Source: Escherichia coli O157:H7 (GTDB lineage Bacteria > Pseudomonadota > Gammaproteobacteria > Enterobacterales > Enterobacteriaceae). From it: 64,000 nt of DNA. Of the stretch, positions 3,529-40,674 are shown piece by piece. The stretch is from the NCBI RefSeq assembly GCF_013167455.1, contig NZ_CP038330.1. One strand, written 5' to 3'. The position numbers and the translations under genes are program-made. Numbering within the stretch: position 1 is the stretch's first letter; every line of letters begins with the position of its first letter. The notes below the pieces were generated by a model, which was not told the DNA's origin, ran no database searches, and saw only the letters and a list, made by a program, of their open reading frames with translations.

Positions 3529-4017
3529 ATGTTTGGAAAAATCATTTTAACTGCGATGCTCACAACCAGCTCTGCCACTGCCGAAGATGCCGGGAAGAAC
3601 ATCGCCTCAGGCTTGGCAACTGCATCTACCCGCCAAATAGGTCAGGCCATCATGCCAACTCTAGCTATCGGCTCGGCCATTGCAAAAAGCGCAGGAAAAG
3701 GCATGGTGTTAGGTTTCGCTGAGACATCTGCCAGCTATATTTCCCACGATGACCTGAGCGCCACTCGAAGCTATCAAAACCCTGAGGCTGTTGATATGGC
3801 AAAAGGCCTGGGGACCTTGAAAGACGTCCCTGATTTCCTCTACGTCATTACAGACGTAAATGCCAACATGGCTGACAAATGCAAGCGCGTCTGGGAGCCT
3901 CAATCACTGGCTTTAAGCCAATTGATTGTTGAGCTGGTGGCACTGCGTAAGACGAACAACAAAGGTAGCTACGAACAAGCGCTATCCCACCTCGATTGTT
4001 CAATATTCACAAACTAA
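3529..4017 (+). CDS. secreted hypothetical protein
   Basis: ATG at 3529 with GAGG upstream; N-terminal signal peptide MFGKIILTAMLTTSSATA; hairpin terminator follows. Confidence 0.55.
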   Translation: MFGKIILTAMLTTSSATAEDAGKNIASGLATASTRQIGQAIMPTLAIGSAIAKSAGKGMVLGFAETSASYISHDDLSATRSYQNPEAVDMAKGLGTLKDVPDFLYVITDVNANMADKCKRVWEPQSLALSQLIVELVALRKTNNKGSYEQALSHLDCSIFTN

Positions 4018-4022
4018 AACAA

Positions 4023-4045
4023 TTAAGGGGCCGTCGGCCCCTTAT
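4023..4045 (+). terminator. rho-independent terminator-like hairpin
   Basis: GC-rich inverted repeat AAGGGGCCGTCGGCCCCTTA followed by T-rich run, just after the stop at 4017. Confidence 0.5.
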
Positions 4046-4107
4046 CTTTAATTACCCAAGTTCTTTTGATACCTGAGCTACAATAGTTTTAAATCAGAAT
4101 ACCAAAA

Positions 4108-4386
4108 TCAATTCACATGGATGGCGAATACTTCAACCGGATAATCTCCAAAGTGCGGGTGCGTTATGACGTTCCTTGAGAAGCCACGCCAAGGACGAAT
4201 CTCTATCCTGGACATATCTCCAGCCTTTGGGTAGCCACACTTAACATGGACTTCATCATACTCGCGCCCCTCTAGTCTTTTTATCCAGTAGTCTGTGACG
4301 AGGCGATATTCATCTGGTTTTTCTCCAGATTTGATCTGATCGAAGTAAATCTTTTTTACGGGCAGATGAAGTATTCTCTTTTTCAT
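4108..4386 (-). CDS. ASCH/PUA-like domain protein
   Basis: Start MKKRILHL at 4386 with AGGTGG RBS; KKIYFDQIKSGEKPDEYR pattern resembles ASCH domains; last gene of the 10013->4108 minus-strand operon. Confidence 0.45.
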   Translation of the reverse strand: MKKRILHLPVKKIYFDQIKSGEKPDEYRLVTDYWIKRLEGREYDEVHVKCGYPKAGDMSRIEIRPWRGFSRNVITHPHFGDYPVEVFAIHVN

Positions 4387-4411
4387 AATCACCACCTGAT
4401 AGCTCATCAGA

Positions 4412-4618
4412 CTATCTAACTATTAGACAAAACATCCCTTTTTCAATTTCTGTCTCTCTCGCCTCATGGGCCAATACAATATCCGCGATAACACGAATAT
4501 TCCCTTCATAGTTGCGAATGGCCGCATCCCGCATCGTGTCTAAAGTGTCCTGACACTTCGCTCGCCTGAATTTAACGAGCCAACTTTGCCGATCTATCTT
4601 GTCCACACCAAATCCCAT
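4412..4618 (-). CDS. hypothetical protein (68 aa)
   Basis: ORF packed between flanking operon genes. Confidence 0.4.
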   Translation of the reverse strand: MGFGVDKIDRQSWLVKFRRAKCQDTLDTMRDAAIRNYEGNIRVIADIVLAHEARETEIEKGMFCLIVR

Positions 4619-5236
4619 TCAGCGAACCATGTATCCAGCTTCTTTTGCCGCAGCATCAAGCTCGGAGGAAAAGTTAACGTCGGACTTTTCTGCCGCGTTA
4701 TAGAGGGCTCCACACTTGGGCCATGAGCGCCCTACCAGTTTCATCGCCAACGCATCCGCCAGCATTTCTCGGATCTGTGTTTCAGCCTCACCAAAATCGG
4801 CTAGAGTTTCGTCTATGCCCGACTCTTCCATCAGCTCGATGAGCTGAGGTTGTTTGAGCCAGACGCCTGTTTGCATTTCCAACTGGTCTCTTGCATCTGC
4901 CACCAATTGGCGTTCAAGGGTGACGCCATTTACGGTCTTAACAAATTGCTTTGGCTGACGCTTTACCTTTTTTGGTCTGGACACATCAGAGATAACCGTC
5001 ACCGGCTTCCCACGCAGTTCACGCGGCAACGGTCCACTTAGCCCCAGAACTAAGCGACGAGCGTACTCATGCTCGTATGGTTTCAACCCTCGACCTTCAC
5101 GGTACATCTCAGTATCCACCAGCAGATCACCGCGCAGCCTCGCGTTTTTCCGCACTTGTTCGGACAAGACCGATTTGCCCTTCCCGCTGGCTCCCATTAC
5201 GAGCGAGTGAGATTCTACTTTGTTATCAAAAAACAT
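4619..5236 (-). CDS. P-loop NTPase / kinase-like protein
   Basis: Walker A motif GASGKGKS near N-terminus followed by DLLVD. Confidence 0.55.
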   Translation of the reverse strand: MFFDNKVESHSLVMGASGKGKSVLSEQVRKNARLRGDLLVDTEMYREGRGLKPYEHEYARRLVLGLSGPLPRELRGKPVTVISDVSRPKKVKRQPKQFVKTVNGVTLERQLVADARDQLEMQTGVWLKQPQLIELMEESGIDETLADFGEAETQIREMLADALAMKLVGRSWPKCGALYNAAEKSDVNFSSELDAAAKEAGYMVR

Positions 5237-5291
5237 AATTCCGCCCCCAAAGAGGTGTTGCTATAAAACATGGTTTGAACATCTGGCGCTG

Positions 5292-5948
5292 TTATTGCGC
5301 CCACCGATACTCTGGGCAACGCACTCTGTTGTGGCCGCTTTTCCCTTTGCTATTGGTGATGTCATCTTCATTCTTCGCAGCCCCCAGCTTACTCAGTATT
5401 TCAGCTTTTGTGGCGCGATGACCGCGTATTAAAAGAGCATTCAGCAGGTATCCAGTGAACACCTCTGTACTCGGCATACGGTCAAGCAACTCAACATACT
5501 GCTCATCCGTCAAATCATGGATCTCACAATATTTTTCCACCGCCTTTTCGTAGGCTTCTGCGTAGCCATGAGTGGAAATCCTGAAAACAATATCCCCATT
5601 GCCGTAGCCTGGCTTTGTGACGAGAAAACAAGGTGCGAAGTAGGTTCTCTTCACCCCCATCCGGCTCCGGTTCTCGATACTGATATAAGCCCTCAGCCCC
5701 TCAGCAATGATATTTGGCCCGGAGTTGCGTCGCCGCTTACAAGTCTTATTCTGACGCTTCACCTCTTCTGCCTCAGCTTCCCACTTTCGGTCCAAGCTGT
5801 AGGCCAGCCGGTGAGCTGTTGCGTAGGAATACTCTCTCAAGGAGAAGTATTCCTGCCGGTAATCATCCGCCACCCCAACTGTTCGTGCGACACGGAACCC
5901 GACGAAACCGGCGTCATGGGTTCCCTCGCCGTAGTAAATGACTGCCAT
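5292..5948 (-). CDS. hypothetical protein (218 aa)
   Basis: Start overlaps the stop of the upstream methyltransferase-like gene (translational coupling). Confidence 0.5.
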   Translation of the reverse strand: MAVIYYGEGTHDAGFVGFRVARTVGVADDYRQEYFSLREYSYATAHRLAYSLDRKWEAEAEEVKRQNKTCKRRRNSGPNIIAEGLRAYISIENRSRMGVKRTYFAPCFLVTKPGYGNGDIVFRISTHGYAEAYEKAVEKYCEIHDLTDEQYVELLDRMPSTEVFTGYLLNALLIRGHRATKAEILSKLGAAKNEDDITNSKGKSGHNRVRCPEYRWAQ

Positions 5949-25574: not shown

Positions 25575-26394
25575 GGCACTGTTGCAAAGTTAGCGATGAG
25601 GCAGCCTTTTGTCTTATTCAAAGGCCTTACATTTCAAAAACTCTGCTTACCAGGCGCATTTCGCCCAGGGGATCACCATAATAAAATGCTGAGGCCTGGC
25701 CTTTGCGTAGTGCACGCATCACCTCAATACCTTTGATGGTGGCGTAAGCCGTCTTCATGGATTTAAATCCCAGCGTGGCGCCGATTATCCGTTTCAGTTT
25801 GCCATGATCGCATTCAATCACGTTGTTCCGGTACTTAATCTGTCGGTGTTCAACGTCAGACGGGCACCGGCCTTCGCGTTTGAGCAGAGCAAGCGCGCGA
25901 CCATAGGCGGGCGCTTTATCCGTGTTGATGAATCGCGGGATCTGCCACTTCTTCACGTTGTTGAGGATTTTACCCAGAAACCGGTATGCAGCTTTGCTGT
26001 TACGACGGGAGGAGAGATAAAAATCGACAGTGCGGCCCCGGCTGTCGACGGCCCGGTACAGATACGCCCAGCGGCCATTGACCTTCACGTAGGTTTCATC
26101 CATGTGCCACGGGCAAAGATCGGAAGGGTTACGCCAGTACCAGCGCAGCCGTTTTTCCATTTCAGGCGCATAACGCTGAACCCAGCGGTAAATCGTGGAG
26201 TGATCGACATTCACTCCGCGTTCAGCCAGCATCTCCTGCAGCTCACGGTAACTGATGCCGTATTTGCAGTACCAGCGTACGGCCCACAGAATGATGTCAC
26301 GCTGAAAATGCCGGCCTTTGAATGGGTTCATGTGCAGCTCCATCAGCAAAAGGGGATGATAAGTTTATCACCACCGACTATTTGCAACAGTGCC
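25575..26394 (-). mobile_element. IS26, complete 820-bp copy
   Basis: 14-bp terminal IRs GGCACTGTTGCAAA at 25575-25588 and (reverse complement) 26381-26394; intact tnp26. Confidence 0.95.
25627..26331 (-). CDS. tnp26: IS26 transposase Tnp26 (wild-type Gly184)
   Basis: 234 aa MNPFKGRHFQRDIILWAVRWY...; contains RIIGATLGF. Confidence 0.95.
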   Translation of the reverse strand: MNPFKGRHFQRDIILWAVRWYCKYGISYRELQEMLAERGVNVDHSTIYRWVQRYAPEMEKRLRWYWRNPSDLCPWHMDETYVKVNGRWAYLYRAVDSRGRTVDFYLSSRRNSKAAYRFLGKILNNVKKWQIPRFINTDKAPAYGRALALLKREGRCPSDVEHRQIKYRNNVIECDHGKLKRIIGATLGFKSMKTAYATIKGIEVMRALRKGQASAFYYGDPLGEMRLVSRVFEM

Positions 26395-27098
26395 TACATT
26401 TCAAAAACTCTGCTTACCAGGCGCATTTCGCCCAGGGGATCACCATAATAAAATGCTGAGGCCTGGCCTTTGCGTAGTGCACGCATCACCTCAATACCTT
26501 TGATGGTGGCGTAAGCCGTCTTCATGGATTTAAATCCCAGCGTGGCGTTGATTATCCGTTTCAGTTTGCCATGATCGCATTCAATCACGTTGTTCCGGTA
26601 CTTAATCTGTCGGTGTTCAACGTCAGACGGGCACCGGCCTTCGCGTTTGAGCAGAGCAAGCGCGCGACCATAGGCGGGCGCTTTATCCGTGTTGATGAAT
26701 CGTGGGATCTGCCACTTCTTCACGTTGTTGAGGATTTTACCCAGAAACCGGTATGCAGCTTTGCTGTTACGACGGGAGGAGAGATAAAAATCGACAGTGC
26801 GGCCCCGGCTGTCGACGGCCCGGTACAGATACGCCCAGCGGCCATTGACCTTCACGTAGGTTTCATCCATGTGCCACGGGCAAAGATCGGAAGGGTTACG
26901 CCAGTACCAGCGCAGCCGTTTTTCCATTTCAGGCGCATAACGCTGAACCCAGCGGTAAATCGTGGAGTGATCGACATTCACTCCGCGTTCAGCCAGCATC
27001 TCCTGCAGCTCACGGTAACTGATGCCGTATTTGCAGTACCAGCGTACGGCCCACAGAATGATGTCACGCTGAAAATGCCGGCCTTTGAATGGGTTCAT
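26394..27098 (-). CDS. tnp26: IS26 transposase, G184N variant
   Basis: Same as Tnp26 except RIINATLGF (GGC->AAC); stop codon recreated as TAG at the junction. Confidence 0.9.
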   Translation of the reverse strand: MNPFKGRHFQRDIILWAVRWYCKYGISYRELQEMLAERGVNVDHSTIYRWVQRYAPEMEKRLRWYWRNPSDLCPWHMDETYVKVNGRWAYLYRAVDSRGRTVDFYLSSRRNSKAAYRFLGKILNNVKKWQIPRFINTDKAPAYGRALALLKREGRCPSDVEHRQIKYRNNVIECDHGKLKRIINATLGFKSMKTAYATIKGIEVMRALRKGQASAFYYGDPLGEMRLVSRVFEM

Positions 27099-27161
27099 GT
27101 GCAGCTCCATCAGCAAAAGGGGATGATAAGTTTATCACCACCGACTATTTGCAACAGTGCC
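26395..27161 (-). mobile_element. IS26 truncated tandem copy 2 (767 bp; lacks the 53-bp tnp-distal end including one IR)
   Basis: Begins at the tnp stop codon directly abutting the IRL of copy 1; ends with TTTGCAACAGTGCC. Confidence 0.85.
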
Positions 27162-27865
27162 TACATTTCAAAAACTCTGCTTACCAGGCGCATTTCGCCC
27201 AGGGGATCACCATAATAAAATGCTGAGGCCTGGCCTTTGCGTAGTGCACGCATCACCTCAATACCTTTGATGGTGGCGTAAGCCGTCTTCATGGATTTAA
27301 ATCCCAGCGTGGCGTTGATTATCCGTTTCAGTTTGCCATGATCGCATTCAATCACGTTGTTCCGGTACTTAATCTGTCGGTGTTCAACGTCAGACGGGCA
27401 CCGGCCTTCGCGTTTGAGCAGAGCAAGCGCGCGACCATAGGCGGGCGCTTTATCCGTGTTGATGAATCGTGGGATCTGCCACTTCTTCACGTTGTTGAGG
27501 ATTTTACCCAGAAACCGGTATGCAGCTTTGCTGTTACGACGGGAGGAGAGATAAAAATCGACAGTGCGGCCCCGGCTGTCGACGGCCCGGTACAGATACG
27601 CCCAGCGGCCATTGACCTTCACGTAGGTTTCATCCATGTGCCACGGGCAAAGATCGGAAGGGTTACGCCAGTACCAGCGCAGCCGTTTTTCCATTTCAGG
27701 CGCATAACGCTGAACCCAGCGGTAAATCGTGGAGTGATCGACATTCACTCCGCGTTCAGCCAGCATCTCCTGCAGCTCACGGTAACTGATGCCGTATTTG
27801 CAGTACCAGCGTACGGCCCACAGAATGATGTCACGCTGAAAATGCCGGCCTTTGAATGGGTTCAT
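27161..27865 (-). CDS. tnp26: IS26 transposase, G184N variant
   Basis: Identical to the copy-2 transposase. Confidence 0.9.
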   Translation of the reverse strand: MNPFKGRHFQRDIILWAVRWYCKYGISYRELQEMLAERGVNVDHSTIYRWVQRYAPEMEKRLRWYWRNPSDLCPWHMDETYVKVNGRWAYLYRAVDSRGRTVDFYLSSRRNSKAAYRFLGKILNNVKKWQIPRFINTDKAPAYGRALALLKREGRCPSDVEHRQIKYRNNVIECDHGKLKRIINATLGFKSMKTAYATIKGIEVMRALRKGQASAFYYGDPLGEMRLVSRVFEM

Positions 27866-27928
27866 GTGCAGCTCCATCAGCAAAAGGGGATGATAAGTTT
27901 ATCACCACCGACTATTTGCAACAGTGCC
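27162..27928 (-). mobile_element. IS26 truncated tandem copy 3 (767 bp)
   Basis: Identical unit to copy 2; terminal IR TTTGCAACAGTGCC ends at 27928. Confidence 0.85.
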
Positions 27929-32893: not shown

Positions 32894-33328
32894 ATGGAAA
32901 AAAATTTGGAGAATCTGACTATTGGCGTTTTCGCCAAGGCGGCCGGGGTCAACGTGGAAACAATCCGGTTCTATCAGCGCAAGGGCTTGTTGCCGGAGCC
33001 GGACAAGCCCTATGGCAGCATCCGCCGCTATGGCGAGGCGGATGTGACGCGGGTGCGCTTCGTGAAATCAGCCCAGCGGCTCGGATTCAGCCTCGACGAG
33101 ATCGCAGAGCTGCTGAGGCTGGATGACGGCACCCACTGCGAGGAAGCCAGCAGCCTGGCCGAGCACAAGCTTCAGGACGTGCGCGAAAAAATGACCGACC
33201 TGGCGCGCATGGAAACCGTGCTATCCGAACTTGTGTTCGCCTGCCATGCGCGGCAAGGGAACGTTTCTTGCCCGCTGATTGCTTCGCTGCAAGGGGAGAA
33301 AGAGCCGCGTGGTGCCGACGCGGTGTAG
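32894..33328 (+). CDS. merR: MerR transcriptional regulator
   Basis: 144 aa from [36 protein letters not shown] track over-extends upstream. Confidence 0.95.
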
Positions 33329-33344
33329 CCGAGGGTAGTTACGC

Positions 33345-33361
33345 CTTAGCGTGCTTTATTT
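33345..33361. repeat. inner part of the Tn21-family 38-bp terminal inverted repeat (mer end)
   Basis: CTTAGCGTGCTTTATTT immediately before the IS4321-like insertion; continues at 34689. Confidence 0.75.
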
Positions 33362-34688
33362 AATGAGATGGTCACTCCCTCCTTCCCGGTACTATGCTGA
33401 GGACAGGCTTTCATTCGGAGAACTATCATGGAAAACATTGCGCTCATTGGTATCGATCTGGGTAAAAACTCTTTCCATATTCATTGCCAGGATCGTCGCG
33501 GGAAGGCTGTTTACCGTAAAAAATTTACCCGGCCAAAGTTGATCGAATTTTTGGCGACATGCCCCGCTACAACCATCGCAATGGAAGCCTGTGGCGGTTC
33601 TCACTTTATGGCACGCAAGTTGGAAGAGTTGGGGCATTCCCCAAAGCTGATATCACCACAATTTGTCCGCCCGTTCGTTAAAAGCAATAAAAACGACTTT
33701 GTCGACGCCGAAGCTATTTGTGAAGCTGCATCGCGTCCGTCTATGCGTTTTGTGCAGCCCAGAACGGAATCTCAGCAGGCAATGCGGGCTCTGCATCGTG
33801 TCCGTGAATCCCTGGTTCAGGATAAGGTGAAAACAACCAATCAAATGCATGCTTTTCTGCTGGAATTTGGCATTAGCGTTCCCCGAGGAGCTGCCGTTAT
33901 TAGCCGACTGAGTACCATTCTTGAGGATAATAGTTTGCCTCTTTACCTCAGCCAGTTATTGCTGAAATTACAACAGCATTATCACTATCTTGTTGAGCAG
34001 ATTAAAGATCTGGAATCCCAGTTGAAACGAAAGTTGGACGAAGATGAGGTTGGACAGCGCTTGCTGAGCATTCCCTGCGTCGGAACACTGACAGCGAGTA
34101 CTATTTCAACTGAGATTGGCGACGGGAAGCAGTACGCCAGCAGCCGTGACTTTGCGGCGGCAACAGGGCTTGTACCTCGGCAGTACAGCACGGGAGGTAG
34201 GACGACATTGCTGGGAATTAGTAAGCGAGGTAATAAAAAGATCCGAACTTTGTTGGTTCAGTGTGCCAGGGTATTCATACAAAAACTGGAACACCAGTCT
34301 GGCAAATTGGCCGATTGGGTCAGGGATTTACTGTGCCGGAAAAGCAACTTTGTCGTCACTTGTGCTCTGGCAAACAAGCTGGCCAGAATAGCCTGGGCCC
34401 TAACGGCACGACAGCAAACTTATGTAGCATAACGGCAGAAATACACCGGTTTAAAGAATTACTGATCTGGTTTTGCGAATACTGATATTGATGATACTAA
34501 CGGCCCACCGGCCTGTTGAGGAACCTGTAAAACGGAAAGGCTCATTGAAGCCGTATATTTTCTGGAGGTTCATCAGGCGCGGAACTCATCAAGGCGCGGG
34601 AATAAAATCCCATTCAGACGCCGGATAGATTCAAGCAAGCCAACTTGTCGTCAAAATCGGTGTTGCAAAAACGGGAGTGACCATAGAT
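33362..34688 (+). mobile_element. IS4321/IS5075-like element (IS110 family), 1327 bp, inserted in the Tn21-family IR
   Basis: Length 1327 bp, IS110-family transposase, precisely splitting the 38-bp IR, the known target of IS4321/IS5075. Confidence 0.85.
33428..34432 (+). CDS. IS110-family transposase
   Basis: 334 aa; DEDD-type N-terminal domain (IGIDLGKNSFHIH) and C-terminal domain typical of IS110 family. Confidence 0.9.
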   Translation: MENIALIGIDLGKNSFHIHCQDRRGKAVYRKKFTRPKLIEFLATCPATTIAMEACGGSHFMARKLEELGHSPKLISPQFVRPFVKSNKNDFVDAEAICEAASRPSMRFVQPRTESQQAMRALHRVRESLVQDKVKTTNQMHAFLLEFGISVPRGAAVISRLSTILEDNSLPLYLSQLLLKLQQHYHYLVEQIKDLESQLKRKLDEDEVGQRLLSIPCVGTLTASTISTEIGDGKQYASSRDFAAATGLVPRQYSTGGRTTLLGISKRGNKKIRTLLVQCARVFIQKLEHQSGKLADWVRDLLCRKSNFVVTCALANKLARIAWALTARQQTYVA

Positions 34689-34709
34689 TCCGTTTTCTGA
34701 GACGACCCC
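34689..34709. repeat. outer part of the Tn21-family terminal inverted repeat; right boundary of the resistance island
   Basis: TCCGTTTTCTGAGACGACCCC, reverse complement of a GGGG..CTCAGAAAACGGA IR end. Confidence 0.7.
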
Positions 34710-34837
34710 TTGTAGGATTGGCTGTATCTGGGGACACTATAACCGTCAAAGAAGCCGGTTTGGTGTTGGTCATTGGGGTTATCCTGTGGATCTATGGTAT
34801 AATCTTAACCAAGGTCAGCAATTCCTAAGGGGGTCAA

Positions 34838-34954
34838 ATGGACGCTTTCACATTAGGCATGTTGGGGTTGCTCATTTTTTTCACTGTCGTCACTGGCGGC
34901 AGTCTGTATCTCTACCATGAGAAACAGAAGGAAAAAAAGCATCACAACGCCTAA
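34838..34954 (+). CDS. small hydrophobic peptide (38 aa), possible membrane toxin-like peptide
   Basis: Strong SD (AAGGGGG) 6 bp before ATG; MDAFTLGMLGLLIFFTVVTGGSLYLYHEKQKEKKHHNA = one TM helix plus basic tail; rho-independent terminator downstream. Confidence 0.4.
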   Translation: MDAFTLGMLGLLIFFTVVTGGSLYLYHEKQKEKKHHNA

Positions 34955-34981
34955 AGAGTAACTGCGACAATGAACGTAAAG

Positions 34982-35009
34982 GCCAGCAATAGCTGGCCTT
35001 TTTTTATAC
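34982..35009 (+). terminator. rho-independent terminator
   Basis: AAAGGCCAGCAATAGCTGGCCTTTTTTT. Confidence 0.7.
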
Positions 35010-35025
35010 TTGCAGTTTGAGGTGT

Positions 35026-35059
35026 TACATGTCACGATAAGGTAAGTGTGACATGTAAC
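35026..35059. promoter_or_regulatory. inverted repeat TTACATGTCAC-N12-GTGACATGTAA, probable operator
   Basis: 11-bp perfect arms overlapping the start of the RHH-like gene at 35048. Confidence 0.45.
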
Positions 35060-35449
35060 GGAAAAGGTGATTTTTTGAAAGTATCCAATGAAGATGCTCA
35101 GGCTACGGCGATCTATCTCCTCAGAGCTGCTTCGCGCCCAGCTTTCTGGCGTGACGTCCCATTCGATAAGAAACTTGAAGCCGTGGACAGCCTGAACAGC
35201 ATAGGGCGATCACCATCAGAACTCACTGAATGGATTAATAAATACCTGACAGCAGAGCAAATCAATAAACTCGGGACATCAATTAGGCAACGTCGCAGAA
35301 GGGGATATGGTGTTGGTAAAAGCATAACTATAAGCGATAAAGCCCACAGGATTTTGAAGCGGTTGTCAGAAGTCGATGGTTGCAGTTTGTCAGAAGTGAT
35401 CGAGAAACGCCTAGCCCGAGCTTATAAAAATACATGGGACCATAAATAG
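35048..35449 (+). CDS. ribbon-helix-helix-like DNA-binding protein (start uncertain)
   Basis: C-terminal KSITISDKAHRILKRLSEVDGCSLSEVIEKRL resembles CopG/Arc RHH; GTG start lies inside the palindrome. Confidence 0.45.
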   Translation: MTCNGKGDFLKVSNEDAQATAIYLLRAASRPAFWRDVPFDKKLEAVDSLNSIGRSPSELTEWINKYLTAEQINKLGTSIRQRRRRGYGVGKSITISDKAHRILKRLSEVDGCSLSEVIEKRLARAYKNTWDHK

Positions 35450-35562
35450 AGTGACACTAGGGGTTGCATTTTTAAAACCCGTGATAGCATCTAAATGAAC
35501 CCAAACGAATAGGGGGGCTGGCGGCGATGCCGACCATTATCCCGACAATGGAGAAATAGACC

Positions 35563-36288
35563 ATGATGACATTGACTACCGTCTCGAAGAAAACTTCAAA
35601 TAATTCAGCCCTTGTATTCTGGCGCGTTGGTACAAAACGGAAAGGCATCCTTGATGTCCATATTGATTTTGACCACGAAGAAGCGGATCTTTTGGCTGAG
35701 CTCGTAGCCATTCGCTATCTGGCGCTGGACAAACAGGTTTTTTGCAGAGAGCCAGGTGCTGGTGCTGGTTACAAGCTGGTGGTATCCAAAGGTGCAATCA
35801 AGAAGCTGGCGCTGGGCAAATCCACCAAGGCTTTTGCTTTCAAGTTTGCGGCTTGCCTCACTGGGCGTTTAAAGGGCGCTACTATTGAAGTCTCGCAGAG
35901 CATGGAGTTTATGGATGAGCCGGGAGAGGGCAACATTGAGCTCCTCGATGTGGACAAGCAAGCCTATACCCAGACCCATGACGAAATATCTACACCTGCC
36001 ATTGGCCCCGTCCTGGTTACTCAACATGCCATCGATCAGTATCAGGCCCGGATAACCTCTGGAGACCCTAAAAAACCGTGGGCCTCACTTGTTGGCCGCC
36101 TCCAGCATCCAGAGTTACAGGTTCAGCCCTTTGACGAGAAAGTGGCTCGCCATAAAGCCAGAAAGTATGGCCGCGTAGATAACGTGGAAGTCTGGGGCCA
36201 TAGAGATTCCAAGTTCAAGTACCTGATGGTGATCAACGACGACAACCAAAAACGTGTTCTTGTCACAGTGTTTGAGCGAAATGAGTAA
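35563..36288 (+). CDS. hypothetical protein (241 aa)
   Basis: ORF with reasonable spacing; no motif recognised. Confidence 0.5.
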   Translation: MMTLTTVSKKTSNNSALVFWRVGTKRKGILDVHIDFDHEEADLLAELVAIRYLALDKQVFCREPGAGAGYKLVVSKGAIKKLALGKSTKAFAFKFAACLTGRLKGATIEVSQSMEFMDEPGEGNIELLDVDKQAYTQTHDEISTPAIGPVLVTQHAIDQYQARITSGDPKKPWASLVGRLQHPELQVQPFDEKVARHKARKYGRVDNVEVWGHRDSKFKYLMVINDDNQKRVLVTVFERNE

Positions 36289-36338
36289 CCTGCTTCTCAT
36301 TTGTTCTGAATACACAACCTCTCCAAATCACGTATTCA

Positions 36339-36353
36339 TACCCTAAAAGGGCA
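36339..36353. promoter_or_regulatory. candidate activator box ACCCTAAAAGGGCA upstream of rhs
   Basis: CC-W5-GGGC motif ~65-80 bp upstream of the rhs start. Confidence 0.3.
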
Positions 36354-36420
36354 ATAACGCAGTCGTTGATAACGACTCTCCCACCTGAAAATAGCTCCAG
36401 CATAAAAACTGGAGCTGTAA

Positions 36421-39400
36421 ATGAGATCGAGACCTTCCCTTTTACTGATGCGAAACCTGCGGTCATTGGCCGTTGTGGTGCTCGCAACTTTGCCATGCGT
36501 TGCTTTTGCACAATGGCGGGTTGTAGCCGTGAGCACCGAAGTAGACAAAATGCGCTTCAACACCATCATAGACGCGCATTCCTTCATGAAGAATTATCGC
36601 TCTGGTGAGGAGCAAGGGAAGGGAACGCCAGTTGGGGATGCGCTTTATCCGGTTGCCAGTTATGGTGATGGCCGTTATGTCTCCAGGATCTGTTTTAAGT
36701 ATCTAGGTGCTACTGGCGATTATGACCCCACTACCTGCACTGGCGACCCAGCTACGGTCTACTGGCGCTCAACCTATGTTCTGCCGGGTGAGATGGATAA
36801 AACACCGTTCCTGGACAGGGATCTCGGCTTACCAACAACGACCATGTGTGTAGGGAACCCTATCCATCTTGGCACCGGCAACAAGTTCCAGGCTGAACTG
36901 GATTATCAAAGCGGAGGCTCCGACCCTTTCACATTCACCAGATACTACAATAGCCACCTTCCTGATGAAGAGCTCGGCGGCTGGCGGCATACCTACTCGC
37001 GGAGCGTCGAGGTCAACGCCTCGAAGTACGGTGAGAACATGGTTGTCCTGCACCGGCCAGAAGGGCAACAACTCGCGTTCTACAACTCGTCCTCTGTCTG
37101 GGTGCCAACATGGAAAACCGATGATACCTTGACGAAGGATGCTACCGGCTGGCGCTACACTCAATCTGACGGGGTAGTCGAGGCCTATGATGAAACCGGA
37201 CGACTGACCGGCATCGAGAAGCCCAACGGCAATCACATCACCCTGAGCTATCTGAACGGAGAGCTATCCTCGATCACTGACGGCTTTGGCCGCACCATCC
37301 AGTTCCAGTATCAAGATGGCCGCATGGTCAGTGTCACCGATCCTGCTGGTGGCAGTATTCAGTACCAGTACAACAGCGCTGGCAAGCTGGCGGAAGTGAT
37401 CTACCAGGACAATACGAGCCGCAGCTATCTCTACGATGACCCGAATGCACCGGGTTTGCTCTCTGGGCTGGTGGACGAGAACGGCAACCGTTTCGCCACA
37501 TGGGGATATGATACTCAGGGGAGAGCGGTTCTAAGCGAACACGCCGGGGGCGCAGAGAAAACTCAGGTAAGCTACAACGCTGACGGAAGCGTCTCTGTCA
37601 CCAATGCCCTCGGCCACGTTCAGCGATACACCTACAGTCGCCACAATGGGATGCTCAAGCCTGATGTGGTTGAGGGTGCGCCGTGTACCGGCTTTGTGGG
37701 CGGCAAGGAAACCTACGTCTACGACAGCAAAGGCCTCGTCTCCAGCATTACTGACCGCGCTGGGCAGAAGCGCACGTTCACCCATAACGACCGGGGATTG
37801 GAAACCACCCAGATAGACCAGGACGGGGGTAAGGTTACGACCGACTGGCTTCCTTCCAAGTCGCTCCCGGCAAAAATCACAGAACCAACCAGGATCACTG
37901 AGCTCACCTACGACACTCATCTCCGGGTGATAAGCCGCAAGGTCACTGATCGCAGCTCGGGCGCTTCCCGGACATGGACCTACACCTATGCCCCTGTTGG
38001 TACAGGAAAGCCGAGCCTGTTGGCCTCGGTTGATGGTCCGCGCACCGACGTCAGCGATGTTACGACATTTGACTACGATGACCAGGGCAACCTGATCCGG
38101 ACAACGAACGCGCTGGGGCAGGTGACGCAGTTTGGTGACTACGACGCGAACGGTCGCGCCGGGACCATTCAGGGTGTCAATGGTGTAACCCAAACCCTCA
38201 CCTATGACGCCAGAGGAAGACTTGTCAGCTCCACTGGGCCAGAAGGAACCACGGTCTACAACTATGATGCTGTGGGCCTCCTGAGTTCGCTGACCAAGCC
38301 AAATGGTGCAACCGTCAGCTATGAGTACGACGCTGCACATCGGCTGGTGGCGGAAACAGATGCACAGGGCAACCGGCGCGAGCTTGAGCTCAATGACCTC
38401 GGGAACCCAGTAGAAGAGCGACTGCTCGATGCGCTGGGCCAGACCCGTTGGATAGAGCGCCGGATCTTCAACGAAATCGGCTGGCTCTCCAGTGTCTCCG
38501 ACGCCTATAGCAATCAGTCATCGTTTTCCTACGATGTGGTGGCAAACCTGATACAGGAGACCAGTCCCTCTGGTAACACACACTCCTACAAGTACGACGG
38601 CTTCCATCACCGGACACAAACGACCGATCCCCTCGGGAAGGTCACGCAGGTGCTCTACAAGGATACCGGCGATGTTTACCGTGTCTCCGACCCTCGTTCG
38701 CGCCTGACCTACTACAGCTACAACGGCTTTGGCGAAGTGACCCAGGTCCGGAGCCCGGACACCGGCACCACCGACATTACCTATGACGAAGCCGGTAACG
38801 TGGCAACGCGCAAAACGGCCAAGGGGCAAACCACAAGCTACAGCTATGACGCGCTGAACCGGATCATCGAAACCTCCAGCGATGTCGCTGGCGAATCGCC
38901 AATTCTGTACGGGTACGACGAAGCAACCTCACCATACGGCATAGGCCGCTTGACCTCAGTCGATGATGGCAACGGTGTCCGGAGATTTGGCTACACCCCC
39001 GAAGGATGGCTGGCTTACGAAACCTGGGAAACCCACGGGCAGAGCCTGACTACCCAGTACCAATACGATGGTGCAGGCCTCGTCACGAAGATCACGTATC
39101 CCAGTGGCCGTGAGGTCTCCTACACCCGTGACTCAGCCGGTGACGTCATCGAGGTGACAACGACACAAGCAGGCACCACAACAAACCTGGCAAGCCAGAT
39201 TGAGCGAGCGCCCTTTGGCCCCGTCACCAGTATGGTCAGAGGGAACGGCATTTCAGAAAGCCGCACTCTGGATCTCGATTACCGTGTCACCGGCATCGAC
39301 GCTGCTAGGGTGCATTCGCTGGTCTATCGGTACACGCCAGACTCGTTGATTTCAGCCATAGACGACAATCTCAGCTCATCAGTCAATCAGTCACTCGGTT

Positions 39401-40674
39401 ATGACGCGGTTGGCCGCATCACCTCTGCTGAGGGGATCTATGGCGTTTTGGGCTATGGCTATGACGCCACCGGCAACAGGACCTCGATCACGACCGATGG
39501 CCTGAGCCAAAGCTACACCATCAACTACATGAACAACTGGTTGGTGAAGGCCGGGCAAACCTCCAGAAGCTATGACGCCAATGGCAACCTGACGAAGCAG
39601 GGGGCGGATACCTTCACCTATGACAGCCAGAACCGGCTGGTGGCCGCAACGGTCGCGGGAGTGACTGTAAGCTACACATACAACCATCTGGATCAGCGTG
39701 TAACCAAGACCCTAAACGGGCATACCCGGCTGCTGGTTTACGACCTGGCAGGAAACCTCATCGAGGAGCTGGACGCGGCCACTGGAGACGTGCTGGCGGA
39801 GTACATCTGGCTCGATGGGACACCCTTGGGCTTTGTTCAGTCAGGACAGACCTACCAAGTCCACGTCGATCACCTGGGCACCCCGAAGGCACTGACCGAC
39901 GTCAGCGGCCAAGTCGTTTGGAAGGCGAGCTACAGCCCGTTCGGTAAGGCCAGCATCATCATCCAGGGGCCAACCTTCAACCTGCGATTCCCAGGACAGT
40001 ATTACGACGCGGAGACCGGGTTCCACTACAACTGGCGGCGTTACTACGACCCAGCGACCGGGCGGTACATTACCAGCGACCCTCTTGGCCTGATCGATGG
40101 AGTAAACACCTACGGGTATGTGCATGGAAACCCTATGTCCAATACCGACCCGACGGGTGAATTTGCGTTTGTTGGTGCAGGTATTGGAGCTGGGTTGGAG
40201 CTACTTAGCCAACTAATCGAAAATAATGGGAGTTGGAAATGTGTTAGTTGGTCAAAAGTTGGAATCGCCGGAGCGATTGGGGCTATAGGTGGCGGCTGGG
40301 CGTCAGGAGTTTTCAGACATGCCAGCTCCGGTAAATCGTGGTTCAAATTAAGCCAAAAATGGAGCAATGTCTCACCCAGAGTAAGGAAAGTTCAAGGGGT
40401 TCCACGAGGTAATGAGCTTCACCATTGGGCTATTCAGAGAAATGGCAAGTTTGGCAAATATGTTCCTGACTCAATAAAAAACCATCCTTGGAACTTGAAG
40501 TCCATTCCAAGAGATATTCACCAAAACATTCACGGCAATGGACCTACCCCATATAGCGCATTTGGTCGTTGGTGGCACGGGACGCCTGAATGGGCAAAAG
40601 TAGCTCAAGCCTCTCCTGTTAGTGGTGGTTTAGCTGATTCAATAAATGATGAGGGATGCGGTTGTGCAAATTGA
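36421..40674 (+). CDS. rhs: Rhs/YD-repeat polymorphic toxin with Sec signal peptide and C-terminal HNH-like (LHH-type) nuclease domain
   Basis: 1417 aa; signal peptide MRSRPSLLLMRNLRSLAVVVLATLPCVAFA; many YD repeats; Rhs core end DPLGLIDGVNTYGYVHGNPMSNTDPTGE; C-terminal ~170 aa with glycine-zipper segment and ELHHW...HPWN...HQNIHG. Confidence 0.9.
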   Translation: MRSRPSLLLMRNLRSLAVVVLATLPCVAFAQWRVVAVSTEVDKMRFNTIIDAHSFMKNYRSGEEQGKGTPVGDALYPVASYGDGRYVSRICFKYLGATGDYDPTTCTGDPATVYWRSTYVLPGEMDKTPFLDRDLGLPTTTMCVGNPIHLGTGNKFQAELDYQSGGSDPFTFTRYYNSHLPDEELGGWRHTYSRSVEVNASKYGENMVVLHRPEGQQLAFYNSSSVWVPTWKTDDTLTKDATGWRYTQSDGVVEAYDETGRLTGIEKPNGNHITLSYLNGELSSITDGFGRTIQFQYQDGRMVSVTDPAGGSIQYQYNSAGKLAEVIYQDNTSRSYLYDDPNAPGLLSGLVDENGNRFATWGYDTQGRAVLSEHAGGAEKTQVSYNADGSVSVTNALGHVQRYTYSRHNGMLKPDVVEGAPCTGFVGGKETYVYDSKGLVSSITDRAGQKRTFTHNDRGLETTQIDQDGGKVTTDWLPSKSLPAKITEPTRITELTYDTHLRVISRKVTDRSSGASRTWTYTYAPVGTGKPSLLASVDGPRTDVSDVTTFDYDDQGNLIRTTNALGQVTQFGDYDANGRAGTIQGVNGVTQTLTYDARGRLVSSTGPEGTTVYNYDAVGLLSSLTKPNGATVSYEYDAAHRLVAETDAQGNRRELELNDLGNPVEERLLDALGQTRWIERRIFNEIGWLSSVSDAYSNQSSFSYDVVANLIQETSPSGNTHSYKYDGFHHRTQTTDPLGKVTQVLYKDTGDVYRVSDPRSRLTYYSYNGFGEVTQVRSPDTGTTDITYDEAGNVATRKTAKGQTTSYSYDALNRIIETSSDVAGESPILYGYDEATSPYGIGRLTSVDDGNGVRRFGYTPEGWLAYETWETHGQSLTTQYQYDGAGLVTKITYPSGREVSYTRDSAGDVIEVTTTQAGTTTNLASQIERAPFGPVTSMVRGNGISESRTLDLDYRVTGIDAARVHSLVYRYTPDSLISAIDDNLSSSVNQSLGYDAVGRITSAEGIYGVLGYGYDATGNRTSITTDGLSQSYTINYMNNWLVKAGQTSRSYDANGNLTKQGADTFTYDSQNRLVAATVAGVTVSYTYNHLDQRVTKTLNGHTRLLVYDLAGNLIEELDAATGDVLAEYIWLDGTPLGFVQSGQTYQVHVDHLGTPKALTDVSGQVVWKASYSPFGKASIIIQGPTFNLRFPGQYYDAETGFHYNWRRYYDPATGRYITSDPLGLIDGVNTYGYVHGNPMSNTDPTGEFAFVGAGIGAGLELLSQLIENNGSWKCVSWSKVGIAGAIGAIGGGWASGVFRHASSGKSWFKLSQKWSNVSPRVRKVQGVPRGNELHHWAIQRNGKFGKYVPDSIKNHPWNLKSIPRDIHQNIHGNGPTPYSAFGRWWHGTPEWAKVAQASPVSGGLADSINDEGCGCAN

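Follow-up and report, generated by a model that had tools for sequence, protein, structure and literature searches.

KdpF, CydX, AcrZ and FixQ/CcoQ are proteins of 30–50 aa with a single transmembrane (TM) helix, whose genes adjoin, and are co-transcribed with, a gene for a membrane protein. Small size, a single hydrophobic helix and a charged tail are also features of Hok, TisB, Ldr, Ibs and Fst. The 38-aa peptide gene described here is located in the window, i.e. the whole 64,000-nt stretch of Escherichia coli O157:H7 contig NZ_CP038330.1 that was analyzed, and its product resembles both groups. It has no sequence homology to KdpF, CydX, AcrZ or FixQ (a weak similarity to FixQ, E = 0.057, is not significant), and its partner gene, in contrast to theirs, encodes a protein of only 79 aa without recognizable function. 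Unlike the genes of the Hok type, it belongs to an operon, and no antisense RNA gene, promoter or leader of its own, or homology to these toxins was found.

The closest described locus is vcrx125 of plasmid pVCR94, which has the same 38-aa sequence, the same terminator position and the same downstream genes (vcrx126, vcrx127, rhs). In pVCR94, orf240/vcrx124 and the AcaCD-driven operon are intact, whereas the copy in the window is severed by the resistance island ARI-A. Insertion of ARI-A into the backbone gene orf240 has been described, and ARI-A islands are Tn1696 derivatives (PMC6872532). The inverted repeat (IR) end, the IS4321-type insertion, the mer genes and the junction in the window all match ARI-A of type 1 IncC plasmids, which lies in orf240 upstream of rhs, and no difference was found at the junction. 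Both the gene, which is annotated and whose expression in a sister plasmid has been published, and the insertion of the island into orf240 were already known.

The 38-aa ORF and its conservation

The ORF comprises an ATG, 38 codons in all and a TAA stop codon, and its product is MDAFTLGMLGLLIFFTVVTGGSLYLYHEKQKEKKHHNA. The peptide contains a single hydrophobic helix (Kyte-Doolittle 15-residue maximum of 2.4), followed by a tail with four Lys, three His and two Glu residues, as expected from the first-pass annotation, which had described one TM helix and a Lys/His-rich tail. The ribosome-binding region TAAGGGGGT agrees with the Shine-Dalgarno (SD) consensus TAAGGAGGT at 8 of 9 positions, with a spacing of 4 nt to the ATG. 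The hairpin of the terminator has a GC-rich stem of 10 bp (AAAGGCCAGC/GCTGGCCTTT) and a loop of 4 nt, and is followed by seven T residues; its folding energy is −17.4 kcal/mol (z = −5.4 relative to shuffled sequences). The SD, ATG, 38-codon frame and terminator were thus each found as the first-pass annotation had described them, and the distance of ~130 bp that it gave between the gene and the Tn21-family IR is 128 nt when measured from the IR end to the ATG. Its remark that the gene is missing from the ORF track holds only for the track which that reader had been given; NCBI PGAP does annotate the product, as WP_000338626.1.

Table 1. Position of the features surrounding the 38-aa peptide gene in the window
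Feature	Position	Strand	Remarks
IS110-family (IS4321-like) transposase gene	33428..34432	+	NCBIfam transpos_IS110, 341 bits
Tn21/Tn1696-family IR, outer 22 nt	34688..34709	-	exact match to GGGGTCGTCTCAGAAAACGGAA; right-hand end of ARI-A
3' remnant of orf240/vcrx124, codons 42-79 + stop	34712..34828	+	tblastn: residues 41-79 at 34709-34825
TGGTATAAT, perfect extended -10 motif	34795..34803	+	within the remnant, 35 nt before the ATG; candidate promoter
Shine-Dalgarno AAGGGGG	34827-34833	+	overlaps the TAA (34826-34828) ending the upstream cistron
Gene for 38-aa single-pass membrane peptide	34838..34954	+	= WP_000338626.1 = vcrx125 of pVCR94
Intrinsic terminator closing the operon	34978..35008	+	hairpin 34978-35001 + T7 run

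Short ORFs are plentiful in this region: 56 of at least 20 aa overlap the surrounding 3 kb. Chance alone produces many frames of this length, and the case for a gene must therefore rest on comparative evidence. The peptide is 100% identical to WP_000338626.1, a PGAP-annotated hypothetical protein of IncC plasmids, and to vcrx125 (pVCR94deltaX coordinates 93091–93207); these coordinates fit the ORF exactly and the layout offsets are equal. The first-pass annotation had proposed conservation in related plasmids as a check, and a tblastn search located the peptide ORF in ~819 plasmid records, 726 of them at ≥99% identity. The 350 bp beyond the IR are present in 811 PLSDB plasmids, nearly all of which are IncC or IncA and most of which are typed as conjugative.

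Among diverged copies, pN/pS ranges from 0.10 to 0.24, with synonymous sites near saturation. Comparison of the first 27 codons with those of an Edwardsiella plasmid gave 15 synonymous and 5 non-synonymous differences (pN/pS 0.10), and with those of a Salmonella contig 17 and 12, respectively (pN/pS 0.20; pS ~0.94). In the 19-codon core of nine diverse homologues, 11, 6 and 17 columns vary at the first, second and third codon positions, respectively. When a profile built from nine peptides was run against 1.84 billion representative proteins, it retrieved 16 clusters (50% identity), all of 30–66 aa. The core common to these clusters, G-M-L-G-L-L-x-F-F-T-x-V-T-x-G-S-L-Y-L, is followed by a variable polar/basic tail, and the peptide encoded in the window carries both the core motif and such a tail.

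The C-terminal tail is loosely constrained: KEKKHHNA is replaced by KEKSITTPES in IncA-like variants, as a result of a slip in an A7 run. This one-base slip (window positions 34925–34954 compared with loci L008–L011), which converts the end KKHHNA to SITTPES, was observed in IncA-like relatives from four independent samples, and the tail therefore tolerates either frame. Diverged relatives have retained both SD and terminator. The terminator is kept in all IncA/C-like relatives, with an altered loop in Edwardsiella, while the neighbors beyond it vary. Inactivated copies were also identified, namely one with a nonsense mutation at codon 6 in an E. tarda plasmid and one with a frameshift in Photorhabdus.

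Judged from these sequence comparisons, the ORF at 34838–34954 is a genuine protein-coding gene. The description of a well-formed gene in the first-pass annotation is borne out by the existence of an annotated protein, by conservation of the SD and terminator, and by purifying selection together with the pattern of variation across codon positions.

Operon context in intact backbones and expression in pVCR94

In intact IncC and IncA backbones, the ATG of the peptide gene lies 9 nt past the stop codon of a 240-bp gene encoding a 79-aa protein (orf240/vcrx124) whose basic N-terminus is amphipathic and which has two TM helices. This protein (WP_000714162.1) bears the RefSeq name 'permease', for which family support is absent. 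The operon is composed of genes for a toprim/zinc-ribbon primase (575 aa, vcrx122) and proteins of 92 aa (vcrx123), 79 aa (vcrx124) and 38 aa (vcrx125), in this order, and ends with the terminator. This uninterrupted layout is present in loci L002, L003, L004, L007 and L028. In all intact relatives, the ATG is located 9–16 nt after the stop codon of a 77–83-aa two-TM gene (this spacing was found in L002–L004, L006–L012, L015, L018, L021, L025 and L027), and a G-rich SD lies across the partner stop codon or behind it. The first-pass annotation had interpreted the peptide gene and its signals as a compact unit. This reading did not hold, since the gene forms the end of a longer operon that depends on AcaCD, and its SD overlaps the upstream stop codon.

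In pVCR94, vcrx122–vcrx125 were predicted by Rockhopper to form an operon (Carraro et al. 2014, Dataset S1; PMC4207636). The expression values reported for the wild type, the acaCD deletion mutant and the AcaCD-induced strain are, respectively, 765, 8 and 3095 for vcrx122; 594, 1 and 3060 for vcrx123; 64, 0 and 1136 for vcrx124; 19, 0 and 611 for vcrx125; and 0, 0 and 0 for the next gene, vcrx126 (PMC4207636); the replicates are noisy (q = 0 for wild type versus deletion and q = 1 for induced versus deletion), and the RNA originates from pVCR94 with an intact operon, not from an island-bearing plasmid. Under AcaCD induction, vcrx125 RNA reaches an RPKM of 544 (PMC4207636). These values indicate that vcrx125 is transcribed in pVCR94 and that this depends on the conjugation activator AcaCD. 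The drop from 611 for vcrx125 to 0 for vcrx126 indicates that the terminator works. All features of an intrinsic terminator were therefore observed, i.e. a GC-rich hairpin, a U tract and loss of the downstream transcript, the RNA part of this evidence coming from pVCR94. The nearest mapped AcaCD box and start site are situated upstream of vcrx114 (PMC4207636), and transcription of vcrx122–125 may represent read-through from the vcrx114 region. No main-text mention of vcrx122–125 was found in the literature, and nothing relevant was found in the TraDIS literature on pMS6198A.

The product of vcrx122 (L002, positions 3814–5541) is a primase-like protein with zinc-ribbon, DUF7146 and Toprim_3 domains, which matches DNA primases in PHROGs (E = 7e-57), and its gene is AcaCD-induced. 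A primase of this type also precedes the membrane pair in two unrelated metagenome contigs (L018 and L019).

Homologues of the 79-aa protein were identified down to 56% identity, and these share the terminal signature ...WIYGIILTKVSNS. A recurrent arrangement was observed, in which a 77–83-aa two-TM gene ending with ...WIYGIILTKVSNS is followed, after 9–16 nt, by a homologue of the peptide gene encoding 37–46 aa. The pair was found in an ICE-like contig with TraG_N, ParE/Phd, DUF3275 and RadC (L015), in the primase-linked metagenome contigs L018 and L019, in an Aeromonas contig (L021) and in two further contigs (L025 and L027). Besides the two inactivated copies mentioned above, there were two exceptions: a Salmonella contig (L005) carries a solo, intact peptide gene with its own SD and a GTG start codon, and in L024 the peptide gene stands beside a mere remnant, the last 8 codons of the partner. 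Since the peptide gene occurs at times without an intact partner, the peptide may be able to act alone.

Searches of the peptide and its neighbors against Pfam, NCBIfam, PHROGs and PADLOC gave no significant match, and neither the 79-aa nor the 38-aa protein significantly matched PDB sequences. AlphaFold2 modeling of a fusion of the 79-aa protein, a linker and the 38-aa peptide (9-row paired alignment) produced helices only, with low confidence (pLDDT 56.5; pTM 0.35).

Insertion of ARI-A and the isolated peptide gene

In the window, the backbone restarts at TTGTA (34710–34714), directly beside the IR. The sequence ...ggtattgtaggattgg... is uninterrupted in L002; its longer form, ...GGTATTGTAGGATTGG..., is broken in the window after TTGTA by the IR, and codons 42–79 are all that remains of the partner gene next to the peptide gene. 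The window contains neither the primase gene nor the 5' half of the 79-aa gene, and the left end of the ARI-A island was not found within it. The IR is the only exact match to GGGGTCGTCTCAGAAAACGGAA in the window, and mer genes lie just inside it. The segment 33428–34709 represents an IS4321-like element inserted within the terminal IR of a Tn1696-type island, with 22 nt of the IR left outside. The IS110-family gene is annotated as belonging to the IS4321 family in the identical region of NZ_CP029123.1; this sequence, in which a target-site duplication was sought, is rearranged by IS26.

The IS/IR–backbone junction is common to at least 381 records, and most of the junction-bearing IncC plasmids are typed as conjugative. 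The 79-aa protein was detected at ≥80% coverage in 431 of the 946 plasmid records with a match. Because ARI-A lies inside orf240, the peptide gene has been severed from its partner gene and from its native promoter, and the appearance of a compact unit results from the insertion of the island, which decapitated the operon. The peptide gene is here an intact but orphaned passenger.

How the gene might be expressed in this arrangement was considered on the basis of sequence signals. A search of the + strand from 34400 to 34838 yielded no sigma-70-like promoter possessing both hexamers, and no + strand terminator was found between the IS4321 transposase gene and the ORF. Since merR and IS4321 lie on the same strand as the peptide gene with no intervening terminator, read-through into the peptide gene is possible. 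Expression would then depend either on read-through from merR/IS4321 or on a cryptic extended −10 motif within the orf240 remnant. The sequence TGNTATAAT occurs once in the 64-kb window, at 34795–34803, and the extended −10 motif is kept in IncA, Edwardsiella and Aeromonas relatives and weakened or lost in more distant ones. A role of TGGTATAAT as an internal promoter is a lead suggested by the motif, not a finding. Additional nucleotide constraint around TGGTATAAT was considered and rejected, as other parts of the operon contain several runs at least as long as the 28-nt one that is identical to Edwardsiella.

Several other features of the window were recorded. A sub-threshold Rfam match to Alpha_RBS on the minus strand (34967–35062; 20.9 versus 38 bits) is most likely due to chance. 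Between the terminator and the next gene, at 35024–35059, there is an inverted repeat with two perfectly matching 12-nt arms (GTTACATGTCAC / GTGACATGTAAC) separated by 12 nt; each arm is itself nearly palindromic and similar to the matS half-sites GTGAC/GTCAC. The product of the gene that follows, vcrx126 (35075–35449, 124 aa), gave a weak MatP-like match with a C-terminus of ribbon-helix-helix-like type (E = 5e-8), and the inverted repeat may be the operator of an autorepressor. Approximately 1.5 kb downstream, at 36421–40674, is a gene for a 1417-aa RHS-repeat protein (rhs1 of type 1 IncC), whose counterpart in pVCR94 (vcrx128) has its own AcaCD box. At 25628–27900, three head-to-tail copies with a 767-nt spacing and 99% identity were identified, each with an IS6-family transposase ORF; their period is shorter than a full IS26, and they may be either an unusual tandem array or an assembly artefact.

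Role of the peptide

We consider it probable that the peptide is an accessory membrane subunit encoded at the tail of an operon, orphaned in the window by ARI-A. The properties expected of such a subunit, co-transcription and tight coupling with the partner gene, are apparent from the operon prediction and RNA-seq data for pVCR94 and from the SD that lies over the partner stop codon. The peptide is predicted to span the inner membrane by one TM helix, with its N-terminus outside and its basic C-terminal tail in the cytoplasm. According to the positive-inside rule, the orientation of the peptide would be N-out/C-in and that of the partner N-in/C-in. The peptide would be translated in step with the 79-aa protein and, as a small accessory subunit, would join it in the membrane; the two would form a complex that is made once the transfer regulon is switched on. 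This complex is likely to be dispensable for replication, transfer and exclusion. In pVCR94, eexC and sfx account for all IncC exclusion, vcrx124 and vcrx125 are not TraDIS candidates, and a deletion from vcrx087 to traG could be built (PMC11493245). The exclusion and TraDIS results, the feasibility of this deletion and the presence of the insertion in hundreds of IncC plasmids all argue that the module is dispensable. It is possible that the peptide gene is currently unexpressed in this plasmid, which is compatible with the accessory-subunit explanation.

The first-pass annotation had compared the gene with those of type I toxins, i.e. membrane-depolarizing peptides whose translation is checked by an antisense RNA. 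With 38 aa, one TM helix and a charged tail, the peptide has the size and shape of Hok, TisB and Ldr and falls within the range of such toxins (less than ~60 aa, one TM helix), and addiction modules are common on large low-copy plasmids such as the one that carries its gene. However, a scan of the minus strand revealed no promoter-like site between 34700 and 35100, no Rfam family reached the threshold when the region 33000–37000 was scanned at E ≤ 1, and no toxin family was matched in Pfam, NCBIfam, PADLOC or PHROGs. The gene has no leader of its own, its ATG lying 9–16 nt past the upstream cistron in all intact relatives; its RNA reaches the above RPKM of 544 under AcaCD with no antitoxin known; and it has been lost by nonsense or frameshift mutations in some lineages where no partner RNA is visible. 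With neither an antisense RNA nor a separate leader nor any homology to toxins detected at the sequence level, the evidence gives no support to a type I toxin, which is very improbable, and this half of the original comparison had to be dropped, while its other half, a small membrane regulator or accessory protein, stays reasonable. Tolerance of the orf240 insertion in hundreds of plasmids with an intact 38-aa gene bears on a different kind of toxicity, in which the two proteins form a toxin/immunity, abortive-infection or holin-like pair, one damaging the membrane and the other neutralizing it. This tolerance excludes the variant in which the 79-aa protein is the antitoxin of an expressed 38-aa toxin. 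The pair does consist of two very small, always adjacent membrane proteins, and it is present on several kinds of mobile elements beside toxin-antitoxin modules and DNA-metabolism genes, but it matches nothing in PADLOC, PHROGs or Pfam, a charged C-terminal tail of the kind that holins typically have is missing from the 79-aa protein, and no lysis or effector genes are located nearby. We regard such a pair as quite improbable.

The peptide could also be a lone small membrane protein that modulates a host membrane protein, as do MgrB, AcrZ and MgtS, in which case its linkage to the 79-aa gene would reflect co-regulation only. The intact solo copy with its own SD and GTG start codon in L005, the copy beside a partner remnant in L024, and the retention of an intact ORF in at least 381 plasmid records despite the cut in orf240 are consistent with this role. 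The last of these points is tempered by the 100% identity of the type 1 IncC copies, which may therefore be too young for decay, and no promoter with both hexamers was found in the ARI-A arrangement. The pair, with spacing suitable for translational coupling, is moreover kept in six independent, divergent contexts, and a lone function is in our view doubtful. A chance ORF or a dead remnant without function would agree with the abundance of short ORFs in the region and with the loss of the native promoter and the partner gene from this plasmid; the motif shared by the whole family and the conservation of the SD, together with the purifying selection and the codon-position data given above, leave this reading with hardly any credibility.

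A more far-reaching form of the accessory-subunit explanation, in which the pair constitutes an unrecognized two-component membrane module with a specific role in conjugation and the peptide is an essential small subunit, is unlikely. If it were true, this module would be distributed among IncA/C-like plasmids, ICE-like islands, and Aeromonas and Vibrio plasmids and switched on together with the transfer regulon, and its role might be, for example, in donor membrane protection, recipient establishment, or defence or counter-defence.

IncC plasmids rank among the main vehicles of multidrug resistance, and a large part of their backbone remains labelled 'hypothetical'. ARI-A, which among the resistance islands of type 1 IncC plasmids is the most common, disrupts the module, and spread of the plasmids continues. 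Disruption without blocked spread indicates that the peptide is an accessory factor, rather than an addiction toxin or an essential transfer function. The value of these observations lies mainly in the correction of annotations ('permease', 'hypothetical') and in a warning that the look of a compact unit is here a product of the island insertion.
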